This document shows, piece by piece, positions 1,214-16,522 of a stretch of DNA of 64,000 nt (position 1 is its first letter; every line of letters begins with the position of its first letter). Under the pieces are notes generated by a model. That model saw only the letters and a list, made by a program, of their open reading frames with translations. It did no database searches and was not told the DNA's origin. Both the position numbers and the translations under genes were made by a program. The stretch is from positions 1,376,001-1,440,000 of the forward strand of contig OY762940.1 of the NCBI GenBank assembly GCA_963667255.1. Direction: 5' to 3'. Source of the stretch: Candidatus Cloacimonadota bacterium. Its GTDB lineage: Bacteria > Cloacimonadota > Cloacimonadia > G963667145.

Positions 1214-2737
1214 CTATCTCACTTGCTCCATTTCGTCACATATTTTCTGAACTTCTCTAAAATCAACCTTACCGCTACCCATAAGCGGAATCTCTTTTAG
1301 CACTATCTGCTTTTTGGGTATATAAATCGCTGTAAACCCTTTGGAATTTAGATGTGTTCTCAACTTATTCAAATTTGTCCTTTTGGTTACAGCTATAGCC
1401 AAAGCAGACCCCTTTTTTGCAGCCAACAGCTCCACTACACAATACAAAACAGTATCGGGGAAAAAGTCTTGCAACGCATTCTCGACGGCAACCATACTTA
1501 CCATCTCTCCGCCGATTTTGACAAATCTCTTCAATCTGCCACGATGCCACAAAAAACCGTCCTCATCCAAAACTCCCATATCGCCCGTGTCATACCAGCC
1601 ATTGTGCATATGATAACTGGTCTCTTCTACATCCCGATAGTATCCTTGCATAATGTTATCGCCACGAAGCATAATCTTGCCTTCGCTCCCAACCGGCAAC
1701 TTCTCTCCAGAATCTATGCCTACTATCTTCACTTCCACTCCGGGCAACGGCTTCCCCAAACTGCCGGGCTTATGAAACTCCCTGTTATTTGTGGAAACTA
1801 CAGGCGAAGCCTCCGTCACTCCGTATCCTTGCCACACCTCTTTACCAAAACGATTAAGATATTCCAACCGCACATTTTCCGGCAGATTATCCGCTCCGGA
1901 AACCATAACTTTCAAAGAATCAAAAGTGTTGTCATCGGCTTTACTCAAATACGACCTAAAAAATGACGGAGTTGCCACTAAATAAGTAGCCTTATGTTTA
2001 GCGATGGATTTGCATATTTTCTTATATTCCAAAGGATTGGGGTGAGTAACAATCGTGCATCCAAAAGAAATCGGTAGCCAAAACATAGTGGTAAATCCGA
2101 ACACATGAAACAGAGGCAAACAAGAAAGAAAAATCTCATTTTCATCCATCTCCAACACCTGAGGGATGCTCACTAATTGTTGCGAAATATTTTTGTGGGT
2201 CAAAGGGACAGCCTTAGGAGTCTTCTCGCTACCTGAAGTAAACAAAATCACCACAATCTCATCCTCGCTACCTATGTGAATCATTTGCTTTATAAAGGAG
2301 GTGGTAAGTTTGGCAATCACTCCCGCTTTTACCTTGGAAAATAAAGAGATATTTTCAATAAACTCTTCGATAAAAATCATTCCCGGCAAAGGCTCTAACT
2401 CCAGCTTCTCTAAAAGAGCAGAAGAAGTTATTATCAAATCGAAATTACATTTTTTGCGGGCAAATACGGAATTTTTGATAGCTCCGGTCGAATAATTAAT
2501 AATCACGGGAACTTTATCCGCCATCAGAGTAGCAATAATGGCTATCATACAGCCACCAGAAGTCGGTATCATTATCCCAATATTTTTCTCTTCATACAGA
2601 GCAATTTTGTCTTTCAAGATAATACTGGCAATTAAAGCCTTGGTATAGCTGATTCCTTTACCAGTCGTCCCATCAATGAAAGCTACTTTATCCTTTTGTT
2701 TTTTAGCAACTTCAACAAACATTTCTTGCAAAATCAT
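1214..2737 (-). CDS. Aas-type acyl-ACP synthetase / AMP-binding protein, paralog 2
   Basis: LFTSGSEKTPK, GYGVTEASP, WYDTGD, GRLKRFVKIGGEMVS, GSGKVD motifs. Confidence 0.9.
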   Translation of the reverse strand: MILQEMFVEVAKKQKDKVAFIDGTTGKGISYTKALIASIILKDKIALYEEKNIGIMIPTSGGCMIAIIATLMADKVPVIINYSTGAIKNSVFARKKCNFDLIITSSALLEKLELEPLPGMIFIEEFIENISLFSKVKAGVIAKLTTSFIKQMIHIGSEDEIVVILFTSGSEKTPKAVPLTHKNISQQLVSIPQVLEMDENEIFLSCLPLFHVFGFTTMFWLPISFGCTIVTHPNPLEYKKICKSIAKHKATYLVATPSFFRSYLSKADDNTFDSLKVMVSGADNLPENVRLEYLNRFGKEVWQGYGVTEASPVVSTNNREFHKPGSLGKPLPGVEVKIVGIDSGEKLPVGSEGKIMLRGDNIMQGYYRDVEETSYHMHNGWYDTGDMGVLDEDGFLWHRGRLKRFVKIGGEMVSMVAVENALQDFFPDTVLYCVVELLAAKKGSALAIAVTKRTNLNKLRTHLNSKGFTAIYIPKKQIVLKEIPLMGSGKVDFREVQKICDEMEQVR

Positions 2738-2791
2738 TTAGACAAGCCCCCTCTCCAAAATTTCATTACTAACATAAAGTTGAACCCAATC

Positions 2792-4345
2792 CTAACTCTT
2801 CTCGTTGCACTCATTTTGAACAGACTTGAAATCAACCTTGCCACTGCCCAAGATAGGAATATCATCCAGAATAAAAAGTTTGGACGGCAAACTGATGGAA
2901 CTAATGCCGTTTTTCACCAAAAACTTTTTGATTTCCAAAAGGTTACATTCTTGGTTAACAGCCAATCCTACACAAGAACTGCCGTCTTCCTGCTTAATCT
3001 CCACCGCACAATAAGAAACTTCCGGTGGGAAAAACTTCTGCAAAGCCACCTCAACAACAACCAGACTAACCATTTCACCACCAATTTTCATAAATCTTTT
3101 AGCTCTACCTCTGTGCCAAATATAACCCTCTTCATCAATAATCGCAATATCTCCTGTGTCATACCAGCCGTCTTTTAGGGAACTTCCATCCAATTTTTCA
3201 TCAACAAGGTAACCATTCATCACATTCTCGCCCTTTACCAAAAGCCTACCTTCCTGACCATTGGGGAGCTCATTCTCAGACTCTCTCCCCACAACTTTGA
3301 CCTGCACACCAGGCAATTGCCTGCCGATACTACCAGGCTTGTGATAAGCAGATGTGTTCGTGCTGATAACAGGCGAAGCCTCGGTCACTCCGTATCCTTC
3401 GCAAAGAGTTTTCCCAAATTTATCATAATAAGCCATACGAACGCCCTCAGGCAATTTGTCGGCACCGCAAATCATTATGCGGACAGTATCAAAAGTGTCG
3501 GAATTGGATTTGGGCAAATACGCTTTAAAAAACACAGGTGTTCCCGTCATAAAAGAAATTTTGTATTGGGGCACAGTCTGACATACCAATTTATAATCCA
3601 AGGGGTTAGCCACAGTTACCATCGTAGCACCCAAGGAGATAGGCAACCAAAAATTAGTGGTAAATCCGAAACTGTGAAACAACGGAAGAGAAGACAAAAA
3701 GATATCCTTGTCGGTTAAATCAAGTATCTTGGGAATCGCTACCAACTGAGAAACAATATTATTGTGAGAAAGCGGAACAACTTTCGGTTCGGACTCACTA
3801 CCTGTCGTCAAGAGCATCACCGCCCAATCTTCACCGCCTCTTCTGTGAAACTCAGACAAAATTTTTCTCGAAGATTTTTTGCTTTTCCAAAGAGCTTTGA
3901 TTTTGTCCATAAAAGTAACATTGCCAAGGAAATCCTCAACCATAACCATCTTATCTATCGGCTCAATCTCCAATTTTTCCAAAAGTTTCTCGGAAGTGAT
4001 GACCACATCCAATTTGCACTTTTTAATTGCATACAAACTATTAGCAATCGCACCCGTTGAATAATTAATCAGCACAGGCACTTTGCCCGACAAAAGAACA
4101 GCAATACAGACCAACATTCCACCTGGAGATGTCGGTATCATCACGCCTACCCTCTTCCCCGAGAGCTTTTCTATCTCTTTTGCCAACATCAACACGGCTA
4201 CCAAAGATTTGGAATAACTAAGTTTTTTGCCACTCGTTGTATCAATGAAAGCTGTTTTGCTCCCAAATTTTTTTACAGTTTCTAAATAAATTTCTACCAA
4301 TGAATTATTCAAAATATCTCCCTTTTTGGACACGCCACTATCCAT
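2792..4345 (-). CDS. Aas-type acyl-ACP synthetase / AMP-binding protein, paralog 1
   Basis: LLTTGSESEPK, EGYGVTEASP, WYDTGD, GSGKVD motifs. Confidence 0.9.
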   Translation of the reverse strand: MDSGVSKKGDILNNSLVEIYLETVKKFGSKTAFIDTTSGKKLSYSKSLVAVLMLAKEIEKLSGKRVGVMIPTSPGGMLVCIAVLLSGKVPVLINYSTGAIANSLYAIKKCKLDVVITSEKLLEKLEIEPIDKMVMVEDFLGNVTFMDKIKALWKSKKSSRKILSEFHRRGGEDWAVMLLTTGSESEPKVVPLSHNNIVSQLVAIPKILDLTDKDIFLSSLPLFHSFGFTTNFWLPISLGATMVTVANPLDYKLVCQTVPQYKISFMTGTPVFFKAYLPKSNSDTFDTVRIMICGADKLPEGVRMAYYDKFGKTLCEGYGVTEASPVISTNTSAYHKPGSIGRQLPGVQVKVVGRESENELPNGQEGRLLVKGENVMNGYLVDEKLDGSSLKDGWYDTGDIAIIDEEGYIWHRGRAKRFMKIGGEMVSLVVVEVALQKFFPPEVSYCAVEIKQEDGSSCVGLAVNQECNLLEIKKFLVKNGISSISLPSKLFILDDIPILGSGKVDFKSVQNECNEKS

Positions 4346-9396: not shown

Positions 9397-9697
9397 AAAG
9401 CATCTCACTTGAAAAAATTTGACATCAAGATTTAGTAAAGCAAGGTTTTGTCCAACTTTTTTGCCAAAAACTTGAATAAGAGAAATAAAATCATAGATGG
9501 TTTTCATATGGCGAAGTTTAAAACAAATATTTCAAATAATTTTCAAGGTCAGACTTTTATTTCTGAAACATATGTCAAAGGCTATAAACACAAAATACAA
9601 AAACAAACCAATTGGTAGGCTTTGTGTAATTTATAATTGGAAATGAATAATTATTGTCATCTGCCCGCCAAGCCACTGATAACTTACCAATATTTCA

Positions 9698-9725
9698 ATA
9701 AAAAAGCCTCCAAAATTGGAGGCTT
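9698..9725 (-). terminator. Intrinsic terminator ending the lipoprotein operon
   Basis: Minus strand AAGCCTCCA-ATTT-TGGAGGCTT followed by T-run. Confidence 0.8.
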
Positions 9726-9776
9726 AATTTCTTCTTTAGTAATTTTTTTATTTTCTTCTCCTCAATTCCATAGAAT

Positions 9777-10229
9777 CTATTGCTTCGTATAAACATATGC
9801 ACCTGTCCAGCTGGAAGAACTCGCTGAAAGATACAATTTTGAATTCTCAACCTTATAATAACAAAAATATGCAGAAGAGCCACTTGATGGAGTTCCAGCA
9901 ACACCATTAGTATATTTTGTTCTAGTATAAGTATAAGATCCTTGCCCAATTTTCGGACTGGAACTTGTGTTGACAGTATATGTTCCAGTTTGAGTTTCTA
10001 AAGTATAATTATTATCATCTGTAATAGATGTTTTGAGAGAATTTGTAAAAGACATATTGCTATTGTAAGTTACTTTTTCATACTCACTACTTGATGAGCG
10101 AACCCAAGTCCCAACTAACTCATTTGTAGAGCTACTGGTGCTACTATCGTCATCATCGTTCTCAAAAATATTACATCCACAGATACCCAACACCATCATC
10201 AACATTCCTAAAATTATTACTTTCTTCAT
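9777..10229 (-). CDS. Small lipoprotein, lipocalin-like beta-barrel domain
   Basis: Signal peptide with lipobox ICGC; LVGTW motif; Ser/Thr/Tyr-rich beta pattern; AGGAG RBS. Confidence 0.75.
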   Translation of the reverse strand: MKKVIILGMLMMVLGICGCNIFENDDDDSSTSSSTNELVGTWVRSSSSEYEKVTYNSNMSFTNSLKTSITDDNNYTLETQTGTYTVNTSSSPKIGQGSYTYTRTKYTNGVAGTPSSGSSAYFCYYKVENSKLYLSASSSSWTGAYVYTKQ

Positions 10230-10308
10230 TTTTTTCTCCTTTTATTTTAAAAATTTTATTCTTTACTTAGTGCTAAAAGAACATCTCAAAATTTTTCACA
10301 ACTATATG

Positions 10309-12957
10309 CTACTTCTCCATAACTATACGGAAACCGTCGTAGTAGAGGCGGTAACTCGGATTGGTACCGCGACGGTCGACAACACGGCAATAGGGGTCGT
10401 TGACGAGCCAAAAGCCACCACGACACACGCGATACGAGCCTCTGCTTGCTCCCGTAGGGTCGCTTACTGCGGCACTGCTATAAGCTCCATACAAATCAGA
10501 GCACCATTCCCCAACATTACCACTCATATCATATATCCCCAATTCATTAGCTTTTTTTGTCCCCACCTCGTGCGTTTTGCCACCTGCATTATCCTCATAC
10601 CAAGCTATTTCACCTATACTATTGCTCCCAGAGTAAGTATAGCCTTTGCTTTTATTGCCTCCTCTGGCAACAAACTCCCACTCAGCTTCTGTAGGTAGTC
10701 TGTATTTATCTGTGCCTTCCTTTTGGTTGAGTTTGGTGATAAACTCTTGAATATCGTTCCAAGAAACTTGTTCCACAGGTAAATTATCGCCTTTCCAATT
10801 AGAAGGATTAGAACCCATCACTGCTACCCATTGCTTTTGGGTTACTTCATATTTGCCTATGTAATAATCTTTAGTAAGTGTCACTTGATGAACTGGTTTT
10901 TCGTCGCTATCCCCTGAGGTAGATCCCATCATAAAAGTGCCTGCTTCTACCAAAACAAATTCCATACCGATGGAGTTGACCATTTTAGTGCTAAAATTCC
11001 TCACAGAACTTTCAGTGATTTTACTATCTTTTTTGCCAATCACTTTCCAATAATATGTAGTTCCATAATTCAAACTGCTTAAAATGTAATTGTTAGCAGT
11101 AATGTTTGTAGCAATTTTGCTATAACTACCAAGAGAAGTTCCCAAATAGACCTCATAATATTCTGCATTGCCTGTCCAAGATAAATTAATACTCAAATCT
11201 TGATTGGTAGCACCATTGGTTGGTGAAGTTAGATTAACATCAATTTCTTCAGTTTTTGTAGTAAAACTTCTTATCTCGCTTTCTCCGCTTTTACCATCTT
11301 TTTTGCCAATCACTTTCCAATAATAAGTAGTTCCATAATTCAAACCTGTTTTAGTATAACTGTTTCCTGAAAGTCCACTAGCTATTCTGCTAAGGCTTGA
11401 CGAAGTTGTTCCCATATAAACATCATAAGTAGAGGCTGTGCCAGTCCATGTTAGAGTAACATTAGTGGATTGATTGGTAGCAGCATTGGCTGGAGAGGAA
11501 GCAAATACAGAAACACCATCTTTTGCACAAGCAAGTCTAAATCCTACACCATTTTCACTCTCTAAAGATGAAGAACCATAACGAAAATCAAAGCGACAAC
11601 TAACACTAGAATTAACAAAACAACCCCCTCTACGGACTCGAGTTGTTCCGCTATTTGGACCAGTTGGGTCTATTTGACTACCGCTGCTATAGCTATTATA
11701 CCAATCTGAACACAGTTCCCAAACATTACCACTCATATCATAAATTCCCAGTTCATTGGCATTTTTTTGTCCTACCTTATTTGTTGAACTTGTATTTTCT
11801 TTATACCAAGCAACATTTCCAATAGTGTTACTGCCTGAATAAGTATATCCTTTACTATTATTTCCACCTCGGAAAGCAAATTCCCATTCTGCTTCAGTAG
11901 GTAATTTATATTTGTTAGTTCCAAATAAAACATTTAAAAAATCAGCATAAGCTTTTGCTCCATACCAAGTAATTTCAACAGCAGGATATTTTTCCTTATA
12001 GTTTTTTACATATAAATAACCATTTGAAAGCCCTATTTGACATCCACCATCATTTAAATCTAATAATTCATTACCATTATAACTGACAGATGACGAGCTA
12101 AAACTTAACCCACTAATATTATTTCTAGCCCAATTATATACTTTCACAACCTCCTCATTAGTTACTTCATATTTTCCTATATAAAAATCATTACTAATAG
12201 TTACTGTGTGAATAGGAGAAGAATAATAAGAACTAATTGAGGAGCCCATCTGAAAAGATCCAGCTTTCACCAGAACTAAATTTAAATCAATATTTATTGA
12301 ATTCCCCTCTTTTTTCGTGGTAAAACTCCAAATATCACTTGTTTTATTTTCATCCCCTTTGGCTACGACTTTCCAATAGTAAGTTGTAAGATAGTTTAAA
12401 TTACTTTTTGTGTAACTATTACTGGTAATATTACTAGATATTCTACTCAAACTTGAGGAACTTGTCCCAAAATAAACATCATATTTTTCGGCATTCCCCG
12501 TCCAAGTTAATGTTATGCTTGTTGTTTGGTTGGTTGCCCCATTAGTGGGAGAAGATAAATTTACACTTGTCTCATTGTTCTCAGTAGTAAAATTTCTAAT
12601 AGAACTCTCGTTACTCTCACTTCCTTTTTTCCCCACCACTTTCCAATAATATTTAGTTTTATAGTCCAAATTGTATTTTGTATAACTCGTATTGGACAAA
12701 TTACTAGCTATTTTGCTGAGATTATACGAGCTATTCCCCAAATACAAATCATAAGTAGTAGCTGTTCCAGTCCATTGAAAAGTCACATTTATAGGTTGAT
12801 TAGTTGCTCCTGAAATAGGAGAGTTTAAATAAATTGCTATATTTTCATTTGTTTGCTCTTCATTGTGATCGTCATCATCACTACCGAAAATATCCTTACA
12901 CCCCAAGAATGCAAAAAGTAGTGTAGTAATTATACATAAACCAAGTATTTTTTTCAC
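10309..12957 (-). CDS. Surface lipoprotein: lipobox-FN3-FN3-FGE/CLec-FN3-FN3-FGE/CLec; putative DGR target
   Basis: Lipobox FLGC; four SPxNxATNQ...YYWKV repeats; two FGE-sulfatase domains (LPTEAEWEF, NELGIYDMSGNV, RVxRGG...GFR). Confidence 0.9.
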   Translation of the reverse strand: MKKILGLCIITTLLFAFLGCKDIFGSDDDDHNEEQTNENIAIYLNSPISGATNQPINVTFQWTGTATTYDLYLGNSSYNLSKIASNLSNTSYTKYNLDYKTKYYWKVVGKKGSESNESSIRNFTTENNETSVNLSSPTNGATNQTTSITLTWTGNAEKYDVYFGTSSSSLSRISSNITSNSYTKSNLNYLTTYYWKVVAKGDENKTSDIWSFTTKKEGNSINIDLNLVLVKAGSFQMGSSISSYYSSPIHTVTISNDFYIGKYEVTNEEVVKVYNWARNNISGLSFSSSSVSYNGNELLDLNDGGCQIGLSNGYLYVKNYKEKYPAVEITWYGAKAYADFLNVLFGTNKYKLPTEAEWEFAFRGGNNSKGYTYSGSNTIGNVAWYKENTSSTNKVGQKNANELGIYDMSGNVWELCSDWYNSYSSGSQIDPTGPNSGTTRVRRGGCFVNSSVSCRFDFRYGSSSLESENGVGFRLACAKDGVSVFASSPANAATNQSTNVTLTWTGTASTYDVYMGTTSSSLSRIASGLSGNSYTKTGLNYGTTYYWKVIGKKDGKSGESEIRSFTTKTEEIDVNLTSPTNGATNQDLSINLSWTGNAEYYEVYLGTSLGSYSKIATNITANNYILSSLNYGTTYYWKVIGKKDSKITESSVRNFSTKMVNSIGMEFVLVEAGTFMMGSTSGDSDEKPVHQVTLTKDYYIGKYEVTQKQWVAVMGSNPSNWKGDNLPVEQVSWNDIQEFITKLNQKEGTDKYRLPTEAEWEFVARGGNKSKGYTYSGSNSIGEIAWYEDNAGGKTHEVGTKKANELGIYDMSGNVGEWCSDLYGAYSSAAVSDPTGASRGSYRVCRGGFWLVNDPYCRVVDRRGTNPSYRLYYDGFRIVMEK
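10327..10440 (-). other. Putative DGR variable repeat (VR)
   Basis: 38 consecutive codons with no A in third position, 67/114 GC by hand count in an AT-rich gene, at the C-terminal RVxRGG...GFR segment of the CLec domain. Confidence 0.75.
11021..11345. repeat. 55-bp direct repeat (11021-11075 / 11291-11345) in FN3-like units 3 and 4
   Basis: Two copies 270 bp apart with 2 mismatches. Confidence 0.85.
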
Positions 12958-14711
12958 CTTCCCTCCTCTTTTGAATTAATTTGTTTTTTGTCTTTGCAGT
13001 CTATTGTATTAGCCTCAATGATGCTACTACTGGATACTTGAGTAGGTATAGAGGTAGAATAAGAATTTATGCCACTAATCACTCCCGTAGTTCCATCAAT
13101 AGAAAATACATGCCAATAGTATTTACTGGAAGCAGTTCCTGAAGGAGCAGTAAAGGTTTTTAGCAAGGCATTATCTCCATACACTTTTACACAAGCACCA
13201 GAATATGGCAAGGAACTACTGCCAGCGTAGTGATGAACAGAAAAATAATATTTACCTTCAACCATTTTGTAAATAGTTATAGTCTCTGGACCGTAGGAAG
13301 AAATATCATCAACATCCAAACTATTATAAGGGACTGTAGAACTATTACTACTCGAATATTTACTACGATAGTAAGTATGATAAATAGTTCCATTAATTCT
13401 TGGTGTCCAAAGATGAGCATCCAAATCACTTGGATTTTGACCCCAAGATAAAACAATCCTAATTTCCTTTAAACTACTAGTTGTACCACCAACAGAAGAA
13501 AATTCAATATTATAGACAGAAAGAGAATTATTCTTTACTTTTTTTAACACTTTCACATAATAATATCCTGGCGTAGAACCAGAATTAAAAGTGATTTTCT
13601 CACTATCCGAACTAGTCGAATTAGATCTTTGTAACAGCATTCCAGATGGAGAATACAATTCTAAGTCTAAATCTCCATTACTATTTTTAAAATCAATTTT
13701 TACAGATATTTCATTATTGGCATTGGCATAAGTTTTAAAATAATCAACATCATCATCAAAAATAATAAGTGAATTTTCTTTGTTTCTCGATAATTCTGTA
13801 GCTTTTCCCATTGAATTATTAGGTTCATATGGATCACATGCTGACGAAGGAACAACTTTAAAAATGGTTAGAGCTCTTTTTATGCGAGTATTAGCTTCTT
13901 TCACATAAAAATAGCCATCCAAATCTATATTACTCAAATTCTCTTTTTCTATTATTTTTGAAATCAAATTATTAATATATTCTTCGCTTACCATTGTTCC
14001 AATACCAATAATAGCACTTGATACTGACGGAGTAAGAGTGGCAACACTTATTGCAATACTTGTTCCAGATACTAAATTGGCTAATTTAAGTTTAACAAGC
14101 TCAGTAAATTCAGCCAAATTAAGCCTATACCAAGTATAACTTTCTGATACATTAGCTTCATTTCCCATCTCCAACTTTGCCATTTTATACTGATTAAAGG
14201 CAATATCTATTTGTGACTTAGCTATCATAACAACACTAAAAAGAGCAATTGTTGTTCCTAATATGAAAATCTCTCGGGGAGCATTAATAGAACTTGCATT
14301 TATGTTTCTATTCCCCAAAATGGAAGAATTAGCCTCAACAACTGGATCCCCCATATAAATATAAGGTGCATAAGTATCTGTTTCATCATATACCATAATC
14401 ATAGTTCTTCCATTTTTTGCGACTGCAGAAACCTCAATATTTTGCAGTTTTTCGCCAGATGCATTAGTAACCGTTACCTTTACTGGCTTACTTAATTCTG
14501 AAGAAGTAAATTGATAACTTCCCAACTCATCTGTTTTACCTTGAAAAGATTGTACTCCTTCTTGAGTAAAAGTCCCAGATGTTCCACTACTTCCGCCAGT
14601 TCCATCAGTACCACTTCCTGCATCATTCCCTACAGGACTAACACTCTTCTCACCACAAGCCATAAGCAATACCACTAAAATTAACAAAACTAAATTCAAA
14701 CCCTTTTTCAT
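12954..14711 (-). CDS. Lipoprotein with PPC-like and YfaP/DUF2135-like domains
   Basis: ATG 14711 after AGGAG; lipobox LMAC; DPYEPNNS...DVDYF (PPC-like); LSWGQNPSDLDAH...LDVDDISSYGPETI (YfaP-like); stop overlaps next GTG. Confidence 0.8.
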   Translation of the reverse strand: MKKGLNLVLLILVVLLMACGEKSVSPVGNDAGSGTDGTGGSSGTSGTFTQEGVQSFQGKTDELGSYQFTSSELSKPVKVTVTNASGEKLQNIEVSAVAKNGRTMIMVYDETDTYAPYIYMGDPVVEANSSILGNRNINASSINAPREIFILGTTIALFSVVMIAKSQIDIAFNQYKMAKLEMGNEANVSESYTWYRLNLAEFTELVKLKLANLVSGTSIAISVATLTPSVSSAIIGIGTMVSEEYINNLISKIIEKENLSNIDLDGYFYVKEANTRIKRALTIFKVVPSSACDPYEPNNSMGKATELSRNKENSLIIFDDDVDYFKTYANANNEISVKIDFKNSNGDLDLELYSPSGMLLQRSNSTSSDSEKITFNSGSTPGYYYVKVLKKVKNNSLSVYNIEFSSVGGTTSSLKEIRIVLSWGQNPSDLDAHLWTPRINGTIYHTYYRSKYSSSNSSTVPYNSLDVDDISSYGPETITIYKMVEGKYYFSVHHYAGSSSLPYSGACVKVYGDNALLKTFTAPSGTASSKYYWHVFSIDGTTGVISGINSYSTSIPTQVSSSSIIEANTIDCKDKKQINSKEEGR

Positions 14712-14735
14712 TCTTTTATCTCCTATTTTAAACAC

Positions 14736-14773
14736 AAAAAAAGAGACAGCTCGGTAAAACCGAACTATCTCTT
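14736..14773 (-). terminator. Leader intrinsic terminator (attenuator) of the lipoprotein operon
   Basis: AAGAGATAGTTCGGT-TTT-ACCGAGCTGTCTCTT, 15-bp stem with two G-U pairs, ending in T7, just upstream of the RBS. Confidence 0.85.
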
Positions 14774-14798
14774 AAACTATATAAATTTAGTTGACCTG

Positions 14799-14909
14799 CT
14801 AAGCCACCAGTCCCTTGACTGACCAACTGACCAACTGACCAACTGACCAACTGACCAACTGACCAACTGACCAACTGACCAACTGACCAACTGATTTTTT
14901 TATTTTCAT
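14799..14909 (-). CDS. Putative leader peptide MKIKK(SVGQLVSW)3SVKGLVA
   Basis: ATG at 14909, 30 nt downstream of TTGACA; reads through the octamer repeat to TAG 14799-14801; no SD (possibly leaderless). Confidence 0.55.
   Translation of the reverse strand: MKIKKSVGQLVSWSVGQLVSWSVGQLVSWSVKGLVA
14818..14894. repeat. Simple sequence repeat (ACTGACCA)9 + ACTGA
   Basis: 77 bp perfect octamer array. Confidence 0.97.
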
Positions 14910-14938
14910 AACGACAGGAGTTAAAAATTTTTTAAATA

Positions 14939-14944
14939 TGTCAA
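14939..14944 (-). promoter_or_regulatory. Sigma70-type -35 box of the lipoprotein operon
   Basis: Perfect TTGACA; no canonical -10. Confidence 0.5.
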
Positions 14945-15340
14945 CCCAGAATTGCGAAAAATTTACAATGTTGTATCAACACTGTGTTTGGGCTTCCTGC
15001 TACTCTCTCCTCATCCTCATGCCCGTTGTCTATCAAGCACAACGCCTATCTAATTGCTTTACCACTCTTGTGCTTGGGAAATGGGGATTTATTCTTGTTT
15101 TCGTTCTTACCTGTCCTTTTTTTGCCGTAATCTGACCACATAAATTAAGTCTCAAATGATTAGCCGTATTTATGTGTTCAGATGCTATCGTTATGCCAAA
15201 AGATAGACCTACCTCACCAAGCAACTGCTTGACTCCTCTGCAAAAAAACAATCTCGCTATTTGATTAACTACTGCTCATTTATTTATTTATTGTATGCAT
15301 TGGGATAAAGCGTGGCGGTATCTTCTTGCTCCTGCTCTCC

Positions 15341-15447
15341 CTCATCCTCACACAAGTGGGGATCCATTCTTCCTTATCTTCTCAAAAGAAGCAGGTGCTG
15401 ATGTCCCAACCAGTCTCACCGTAGATTCCCGCGTTCGCGAGAATGAG
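15341..15447. repeat. Degenerate REP/dRS3-like inverted pair, copy 1
   Basis: CTCATCCTCACACAAGTGGGGATCCA ... TAGATTCCCGCGTTCGCGAGAATGAG resembles TCATTCCCGCG-N-GCGGGAATCCA elements. Confidence 0.65.
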
Positions 15448-15450
15448 AGG

Positions 15451-15530
15451 GCGGTGATGTGGAAATGAGTGCGGTGGTGCGAGAACAAGAGTGGTGATGC
15501 GAGAATGTAGGTGGTGATGCGGAATAAGGA
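15451..15530. repeat. Four imperfect 20-bp tandem repeats (GYGGTGATGCGRGAAT...)
   Basis: 20-bp periodicity, each unit carrying a REP half-site-like core. Confidence 0.7.
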
Positions 15531-15796
15531 GGATACCAAACCCAAAGCGTGTTTCGTATGGGGTTAGTTGGCAACAAATCCATAAGTCGAGGCTCGTAAA
15601 AATAGAAAACGACTGATGTCAATTATTGTGCGATGCCTGTAGTCTCTTCCTTAATTGCTAATCGGACATTACAGGTTGAGCATACAATAATGACGAGGGA
15701 GTTGAATATTTTAGAGGCGAGGCTTCGGATTTTGAGTTTTTTCTTTGGCGTTACTCTTTCTTTTTTTATCACGAAAAAAAGAAAGGTAACATAAAA

Positions 15797-16522
15797 TCAA
15801 TTAGACCTCTTCTCTCTCAAAGAAAAAATCTTCCTAATCTGCCTCTCATCCAAAAACTTCCACATCCCCATAGGCAAAGAACCGAGCTGCAAACCGCCAA
15901 TCTGCAATCTAGTCAGCTTCGTCACATTCAAACCGACACTGGAAATCATCCTACGAATTTGTCGCTTCCGACCTTCTTGGATGATTATTTTTAGGACACT
16001 ACCGCCATTAGTAGCCTTATTGATAAAAACCTTGGCAGGAAAAGTCTTGATGCCATCTATCTCCACACCAGCACGCAAAGTGCTCGCCATCTCATTGCTG
16101 AAATAACCGTCAACCTCAACCTTATAAACCTTCTCCAATTTATAACTGGGATGAATGACTTTGTTGGCAAAATCGCCGTCACTCGTGAGGAGCAAAAGTC
16201 CTTGAGACATAAAATCAAGTCGCCCCACAGCAAACAGATGAACACCGAAATCAGGCACCAAGTCGTAAACCAGTTTCCGCCCAAATTCATCGCTATGCGA
16301 CACCAAATATCCGGGAGGCTTATTAATCATCAGATAGATTTTCTCGTCTTTGTATTCGGCAACTTTCCCGTCAACTTCGACCTTATCTTCTTTCGGATCA
16401 ATCCGCCAATTGAACTCCTTGCAATCTTCGCCATTGACCTTCACCTTGCCGTCCAAAATCAACGACTCGACACTTCGTCTAGAGCCAAACCCGCAAAAAG
16501 CCAAAAATTTGTTTATTCTCAA
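15797..16522 (-). CDS. rluB: rRNA pseudouridine synthase (RluB/RsuA family)
   Basis: S4 domain, NKPPG, VGRLD, EGRKRQIRRM. Confidence 0.88.
   Translation of the reverse strand: MRINKFLAFCGFGSRRSVESLILDGKVKVNGEDCKEFNWRIDPKEDKVEVDGKVAEYKDEKIYLMINKPPGYLVSHSDEFGRKLVYDLVPDFGVHLFAVGRLDFMSQGLLLLTSDGDFANKVIHPSYKLEKVYKVEVDGYFSNEMASTLRAGVEIDGIKTFPAKVFINKATNGGSVLKIIIQEGRKRQIRRMISSVGLNVTKLTRLQIGGLQLGSLPMGMWKFLDERQIRKIFSLREKRSN

Follow-up and report, generated by a model that had tools for sequence, protein, structure and literature searches.

Gene content of the insertion and architecture of the 882-aa lipoprotein

The window, by which we mean the whole 64-kb stretch analysed here, contains a 6.4-kb insertion (9400–15796) that holds a cassette of three lipoprotein genes on the minus strand. 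Its flanks are what we take, from recognition of their sequences, to be a pseudouridine-synthase gene and gpmI. In five congeners (G001–G005; one genome per species, each 97–99% complete and in one contig), the same site is nearly empty in G005 and G002 (~120–150 bp), spans ~0.8 kb in G001 and G004, and in G003 holds 2.3 kb with a different lipoprotein. The cassette leader (14741–14894, minus strand), located by sequence scan, comprises a perfect 8-bp tandem array of 9.6 copies (14818–14894) followed by a strong terminator-like hairpin (14741–14773) before the first cassette gene; array and hairpin could possibly form a phase-variation or attenuation switch. A promoter scan yielded results at chance level. 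The stretch 14736–15800 is a patchwork of small repeats that recur at many further sites, among them the upstream regions of other lipoprotein genes in the source genome (G000) and in G001.

The upstream gene of the cassette (12954–14711, minus strand; likely start ATG 14711) encodes a lipoprotein with a PPC domain, and its stop overlaps the start of the gene for an 882-aa predicted lipoprotein (10309–12957, minus strand), recognized as an ORF with two Pfam PF03781 matches and weak FN3/Ig-like matches. Downstream lies the gene for a 150-aa predicted lipoprotein without a Pfam match (9777–10229, minus strand). The 882-aa protein begins with a lipoprotein signal peptide (12898–12957, minus strand) bearing a lipobox-like FLGC (Cys20), followed by three FN3/Ig-like repeats, an internal FGE domain (FGE domain 1; 11530–12279, minus strand), two further repeats and a terminal FGE-type C-lectin domain (FGE domain 2; 10321–10962, minus strand), the signal peptide and repeat count having been read from the sequence.

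The closest solved relative of FGE domain 2 is TvpA of Treponema denticola (PDB 2Y3C; E 6.8e-33), and a C-type lectin fold is inferred for the domain from this likeness. As in TvpA, an FGE-sulfatase-type domain forms the C-terminus, and the two proteins have in common the terminal motif and the position of the variable repeat; the 882-aa protein differs from TvpA in having FGE domain 1 as an extra, internal copy along with its five FN3/Ig-like repeats. FGE domain 2 also belongs to the Pfam family and fold family of the formylglycine-generating enzyme (SUMF1/FGE). Catalysis by this enzyme depends on an active-site cysteine pair. In an alignment to 6S07, the first of these cysteines is missing from FGE domain 2, as is the NRY insert that catalytic FGE possesses, and for this reason the domain is likely non-catalytic; adhesion or surface binding is its likely role.

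FGE domain 2 ends in a DGR-type variable repeat (VR) of 38 codons (codons 840–877; 10327–10440, minus strand), assigned by the template-profile test described below. None of these codons ends in A, 34 of the 38 are NNY, and their GC content is 59% against 36% in the 882-aa gene. They form the longest A-free codon run in the gene, the next longest being 19 codons, and the matching 38 codons of FGE domain 1 include ten ending in A, at 39% GC. A-free runs at least this long are present in 22 of the 801 genome ORFs of ≥250 aa, on account of which an A-free run was rejected as sufficient evidence of a DGR; combined with at least 34 NNY codons, a threshold set post hoc, the run is found in the 882-aa gene only (1/801). 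The initial annotation had already described 38 codons, none ending in A and with 59% GC, as is the case on the minus strand. It had placed them at 10309–10440, a span that needs trimming, since the quoted codons occupy 10327–10440 and positions 10309–10326 encode the IVMEK-stop tail of the gene.

Beyond the VR lies an IMH-like tail (10283–10326, minus strand), a tentative motif assignment. It includes TTGAGAT at 10283–10289, 3' of the VR tail and one letter from the TTGAGCT found after related targets, and no hairpin with a stem of at least 6 was found in this region. The coding tail after the VR is common to the 882-aa gene and a paralogue, a second FGE lipoprotein of 265 aa (G000:C1:62535–63332; L003) whose tail is of the same type, whose VR is eroded and shorter by two codons, and whose gene is followed by an 11-bp-stem, 3-nt-loop hairpin. 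At constant positions, the window VR departs from this paralogue by two C-to-T differences (Ser to Phe, Ala to Val), which may reflect drift since the last rewriting. With its one-mismatch 3' motif and no hairpin, the window target may tentatively be regarded as no longer a good homing target.

Template-profile tests of the variable tip

In a DGR, a reverse transcriptase (RT) copies template RNA and misreads adenines, and the resulting cDNA replaces the VR, altering the binding surface of a lectin fold. No cognate template was found for the window VR, the nearest template showing 13 non-A mismatches in 96 nt; nine true template/VR pairs show 0–1. Because of this lack, the A-only mutation rule was tested just against a family profile, alongside congener homologues. 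To build the profile, templates were gathered from the class and phylum, all belonging to intact FGE-type DGRs; they gave 28 rows, with some duplicates among them.

Measured against this profile, 22 of the 34 template-A positions are altered in the window VR, compared with 4 of the 38 conserved non-A positions, and all 15 AAY-derived codons have a pyrimidine in third position. Seven VRs that occur together with their own templates differ at 1–9 of the 38 conserved positions, and five non-target FGE ends, namely that of FGE domain 1 (18/38) and those of four housekeeping-like genus FGE genes, at 15–19. In a genome-wide scan with the profile, the VR region matched 34 of 37 conserved non-A positions and the next best site 26, and an nhmmer search of the whole genome returned the VR region as the sole match below E 0.1 (1.4e-4). 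Judged by family profile and congener homologues, the tip is thus a terminal VR with changes concentrated at template adenines. The C-terminal DGR variable repeat proposed in the initial annotation is borne out by these results, whereas the C-terminal 38 codons of FGE domain 1 lack the fresh pattern.

The tip might instead have no DGR history and owe its resemblance to conservation of the FGE C-terminal motif together with chance codon use. The A-free runs of at least 38 codons in 22 of 801 ORFs are in keeping with this, and the RGG.W, CR and GFR motifs, common to all FGE domains, raise the profile score; other FGE ends of the genus with those same motifs nevertheless differ at 15–19 of 38 positions, as against 4, and homologues vary at template-A positions while third positions remain unchanged. 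We consider a tip without DGR history highly improbable, and the profile, genome-wide and homologue tests have largely refuted it already.

Search for the machinery and comparison with intact relatives

The source genome G000 is a single contig of 1,587,896 bases and is 98.86% complete; its ends overlap, and its GC skew has two arms. The RVT_1 profile gave no matches in it and was positive in 3 of 14 control genomes. When 14 DGR RTs and an Avd-like protein served as tblastn queries against G000, nothing convincing was returned (best E for Avd 0.063), and an RT profile run over its six frames with stops read through, together with tblastn, reached a best E of 0.016. No template was recovered from G000 by blastn, by an A-tolerant scan or by an AAY-rich scan. 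Neither the window nor the whole G000 chromosome therefore yielded a DGR-clade RT, a template or an Avd, the last being an accessory gene that is widespread but not universal in DGRs; the window target does not belong to a complete DGR on this chromosome, and no RT with a cognate template elsewhere in G000 was found that would make it a remote target. With Rfam, none of seven intact loci matched a DGR spacer family, and the cassette gave no credible match.

The same picture extends to the genus. The template pattern, present in 22 of 232 genomes across the phylum, was found in none of the six from the genus, and bAvd likewise in none of the six; a DGR-RT protein query, in a search without a positive control, matched none of the five congeners. 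The RVT_1 profile was positive in G005 only (1/5). The gene concerned (L038:10110–11654) encodes a UG14-type defence RT adjoining type I restriction-modification genes, near a tRNA-like gene, and was rejected as the missing enzyme on the grounds of its UG14/DRT type and this neighbourhood. Within the 20-kb stretches around the congener targets, no RT, Avd, template remnant or mobile-element attachment was detected.

The absence of template, RT and Avd from the 64 kb, reported in the initial annotation, thus stands and holds for the whole genome, where the template search recommended there found no template beside an RT. Of the two readings offered there, a relic is supported; a target diversified from a distance is not supported for this chromosome, with no DGR RT, template or Avd in G000 or the five congeners. 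It had also been argued that a DGR origin would fall if machinery were missing and homologues showed no adenine-patterned variation; the machinery is indeed missing, but variation of that kind does occur among homologues (G003 versus G004, below).

Carriers outside the chromosome were sought in several datasets. Degenerate VR/template patterns gave no hits in viral contigs and none in metagenome contigs, these being weak blanks from exact matching of guessed patterns; a looser pattern recovered 31 stretches from genome contigs, mostly FGE-type VRs or templates of other phyla, none of them cognate. Searching viral contigs with the FGE domain 2 protein yielded 15 weak matches of 24–28 residues and no phage carrier. 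Two of three sequencing runs contain the window stretch, both from one sample, probably the source, and no RNA run containing it turned up; in each, the VR lies inside one unbroken 57-kb contig at ~60x with no alternative letters, although such contigs drop rare variants. Compared with the closest proxy RT and template (L115), the runs contain other template types at depths of 2–30, none cognate-looking; the one template readable over 30 nt showed nine non-A mismatches to the window VR by hand count. The check used assembled contigs, in which lack of cover proves nothing and an element may have been filtered out.

Intact FGE-type DGRs of the same template family as the window VR occur in class-level relatives (G045:C17, G037:C61 and G149:C1), which, unlike the window's genome, keep RT and template, none of them cognate (at least 13 non-A mismatches to the window VR). 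G045:C17 has the gene order target, avd-like gene, RT, template. Eroded copies and remote targets are both present in G149, where one target lies ~1.6 Mb from its template with two non-A mismatches.

A 3' pairing element recurs in these relatives. In G037 (L112, C61), G149 (L148/L161, C1) and L055, AGCTCAA follows the template, and most of the DNA 3' of the target VR could pair with the template spacer, being its reverse complement, with best 20-nt matches of 19, 16 and 16, respectively. The complementarity spans ~13–35 nt, the lengths changing together; in the other eight template/target pairs, flank and spacer match over just 5–8 nt. TTGAGCT is kept by four congener targets, and the window has its one-mismatch version at a similar offset. 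The pairing is not put forward as new, primer-IMH pairing having been proposed for BPP-1 (PMC5703328); our comparisons fit and extend that proposal. Separately, a Bacteroidales sequence (L051:5001–5130) combines a VR-like (non-AAC) core with a 3' spacer typical of templates and is possibly a decayed or overwritten template.

Related tips across the genus and the fate of the target

Fresh tips occur in five of the six genus genomes, and machinery in none. On the scale used above, non-A differences amount to 2 of 38 in G001, 4 in G003, 2 in G004 and 4 in G005; a second G005 copy (G005a) has 39 codons and was left out of the 38-codon scoring. Eroded tips are seen in G004 (G004a, 15/38) and G002 (18/38), and in two other G000 genes outside the 38-codon register. 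The targets of the genus each lie at a different chromosomal site and have different N-termini, the FGE tips being fused to FN3/Ig-like repeats, six C-type lectin repeats, a weak TIR-like domain or an unnamed domain. The tails represent at least three template types, one in G000, one in G001 and one shared by G003, G004 and G005. G000 and G004 each hold one fresh and one eroded copy with the same tail type, a pairing which suggests that a template long resided in the lineage.

Two of these targets have features of their own. The G001 gene (L105:7171–10515) encodes a lipoprotein with six animal-type C-lectin repeats and a fresh FGE tip, and is followed by T-rich repeats like those found after intact DGR targets. 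In G004 (L108:9254–10465), a fresh tip is joined to an N-terminal domain that is weakly TIR-like; no signal peptide is evident in this protein, which is therefore possibly a cytoplasmic sensor.

Four-fold sites of dnaK differ by 0.44–0.64 between species, and the upstream part of the FGE module diverges similarly in most pairs (0.43 vs 0.45, 0.45 vs 0.44 and 0.57–0.60 vs 0.58 for dnaK), which fits vertical inheritance. The VRs follow another pattern. In the AAY-derived codons, G003 and the fresh G004 copy (G004b) differ at 17 of the 30 first and second positions, against 1 of the 15 third positions; four-fold differences number 2 of 16 in the VR and 26 of 58 upstream, with dnaK at 0.44. Since these tips differ mostly at template-A positions while the upstream sequence has diverged about as far as dnaK, DGR rewriting likely continued after the species split, the machinery having been lost later or coming and going.

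Across the five fresh VRs, none of 29 four-fold codons at template-AAY sites ends in a purine, compared with 39–50% upstream; the corresponding p values, ~0.002 with 0.2 expected per lineage (genus root) and ~0.05 with 0.1 (nearest split), are optimistic because the five VRs were chosen partly on their third-position pattern, and the count leaves out the eroded G004a, G002 and 62-kb G000 copies as well as G005a (for its length). The window VR alone contributes 0 of 7. The window and G001 tips differ at 24 of 84 non-variable positions, though they belong to the closest species pair, and one inherited template therefore does not explain both. A 42-row tree, whose extraction pattern missed G004b, G005a and several class targets, set 26 outside homologues apart from the genus modules (99/96), and left the modules in open forks with no support for a single clade. 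The best database homologues are ~60% identical and fall in a separate, supported clade.

These data are best accounted for by a real DGR target that is now orphaned and likely fixed, its machinery having been lost, to which we assign a probability of roughly 0.75. Under this reading, the terminal lectin-type domain, which the FN3-like stalk likely keeps away from the membrane, would formerly have had its binding surface rewritten by an FGE/CLec-type DGR. The FGE module would be a long-standing resident of the genus, fused to different stalks at different sites, and DGRs of at least three template types would have rewritten it after the species split. The machinery would then have been lost, as in T. 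denticola strains, one variant staying behind; given that the genome searches returned neither RT nor template nor Avd, the tip is probably frozen today and presents one fixed binding variant.

Diversification could also persist, continuously or at times, if the DGR resides in some strains only or on a mobile element (plasmid, phage or integrative element) and so escapes the single chromosomes that represent each species. Fresh tips in five of six genomes with machinery in none would otherwise call for several separate recent losses, the TTGAGCT kept by four congener targets pairs with the template spacer in intact relatives, and in G149, a member of the class, a target is reached across 1.6 Mb. 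Against such a supply stand the 20-kb stretches around congener targets, with no RT, Avd, template remnant or mobile element, and the template contigs in the window's runs, which are of other types (nine non-A mismatches in 30 nt). In addition, the element 3' of the window VR is degenerate and lacks a hairpin, and remote targets are almost never phage-associated according to Wu et al. (PMC5758913). We regard continued external diversification as unlikely.

A somewhat less probable account holds that no machinery was recently resident and that the 3' module or the cassette was imported from a DGR-bearing donor. The cassette insertion is confined at this site to G000, targets occupy different sites with different N-termini in each species, and the tail types of G000 and G001 differ, all of which an import would accommodate. 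It sits poorly with the four-fold divergence of the upstream module, which roughly follows dnaK across species pairs, and with the eroded 62-kb paralogue of G000, whose shared tail type implies that the same template acted at two times; it also sits poorly with the best database homologues, which are only ~60% identical and form their own supported clade.

A hit-and-run mode is a further, speculative possibility that we think improbable: an entire genus with small genomes (1.5–1.6 Mb) would keep DGR-ready binding modules on its surface proteins, and visiting retroelements that never settle in the chromosome would re-diversify them, which would account for fresh tips of at least three template types in five of six species with no resident machinery.

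Orphan targets as such are already published: PMC4891356 describes T. denticola isolates that have neither RT nor template but still carry target genes. The window agrees with that precedent in having an FGE-type lipoprotein with a terminal VR and no RT or template in its genome, machinery being present in class-level but not genus-level relatives, and in both systems several template types and repeated gains and losses are inferred. The two differ in that nine T. denticola strains keep the DGR, so that its template is known and TvpA has a DGR in its genome, whereas the six species-level genomes of the window's genus have none, and in that the present pattern spans species with nearly saturated synonymous sites. 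What is new with respect to that source, as far as consulted, is the genus-wide pattern; it did not appear in the literature searched (titles and abstract starts), although relatives of these elements may be included in the DGR tables published with PMC5758913 and PMC8144416.

Taken singly, the locus is an ordinary relic of modest significance. Surveys anchored on the RT miss such genes and so under-count DGR-shaped surface proteins: a genus with no DGR by RT count has DGR-written tips in five of six genomes. The pattern offers a sharp test of transient or extrachromosomal DGR machinery acting on chromosomally inherited targets, and transient machinery, if true, would change the view of how DGR activity switches on and off in nature.

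Elsewhere in the window, positions 1214–4345 hold tandem AMP-binding (Aas-like) paralogues, which number four in a row in one congener.
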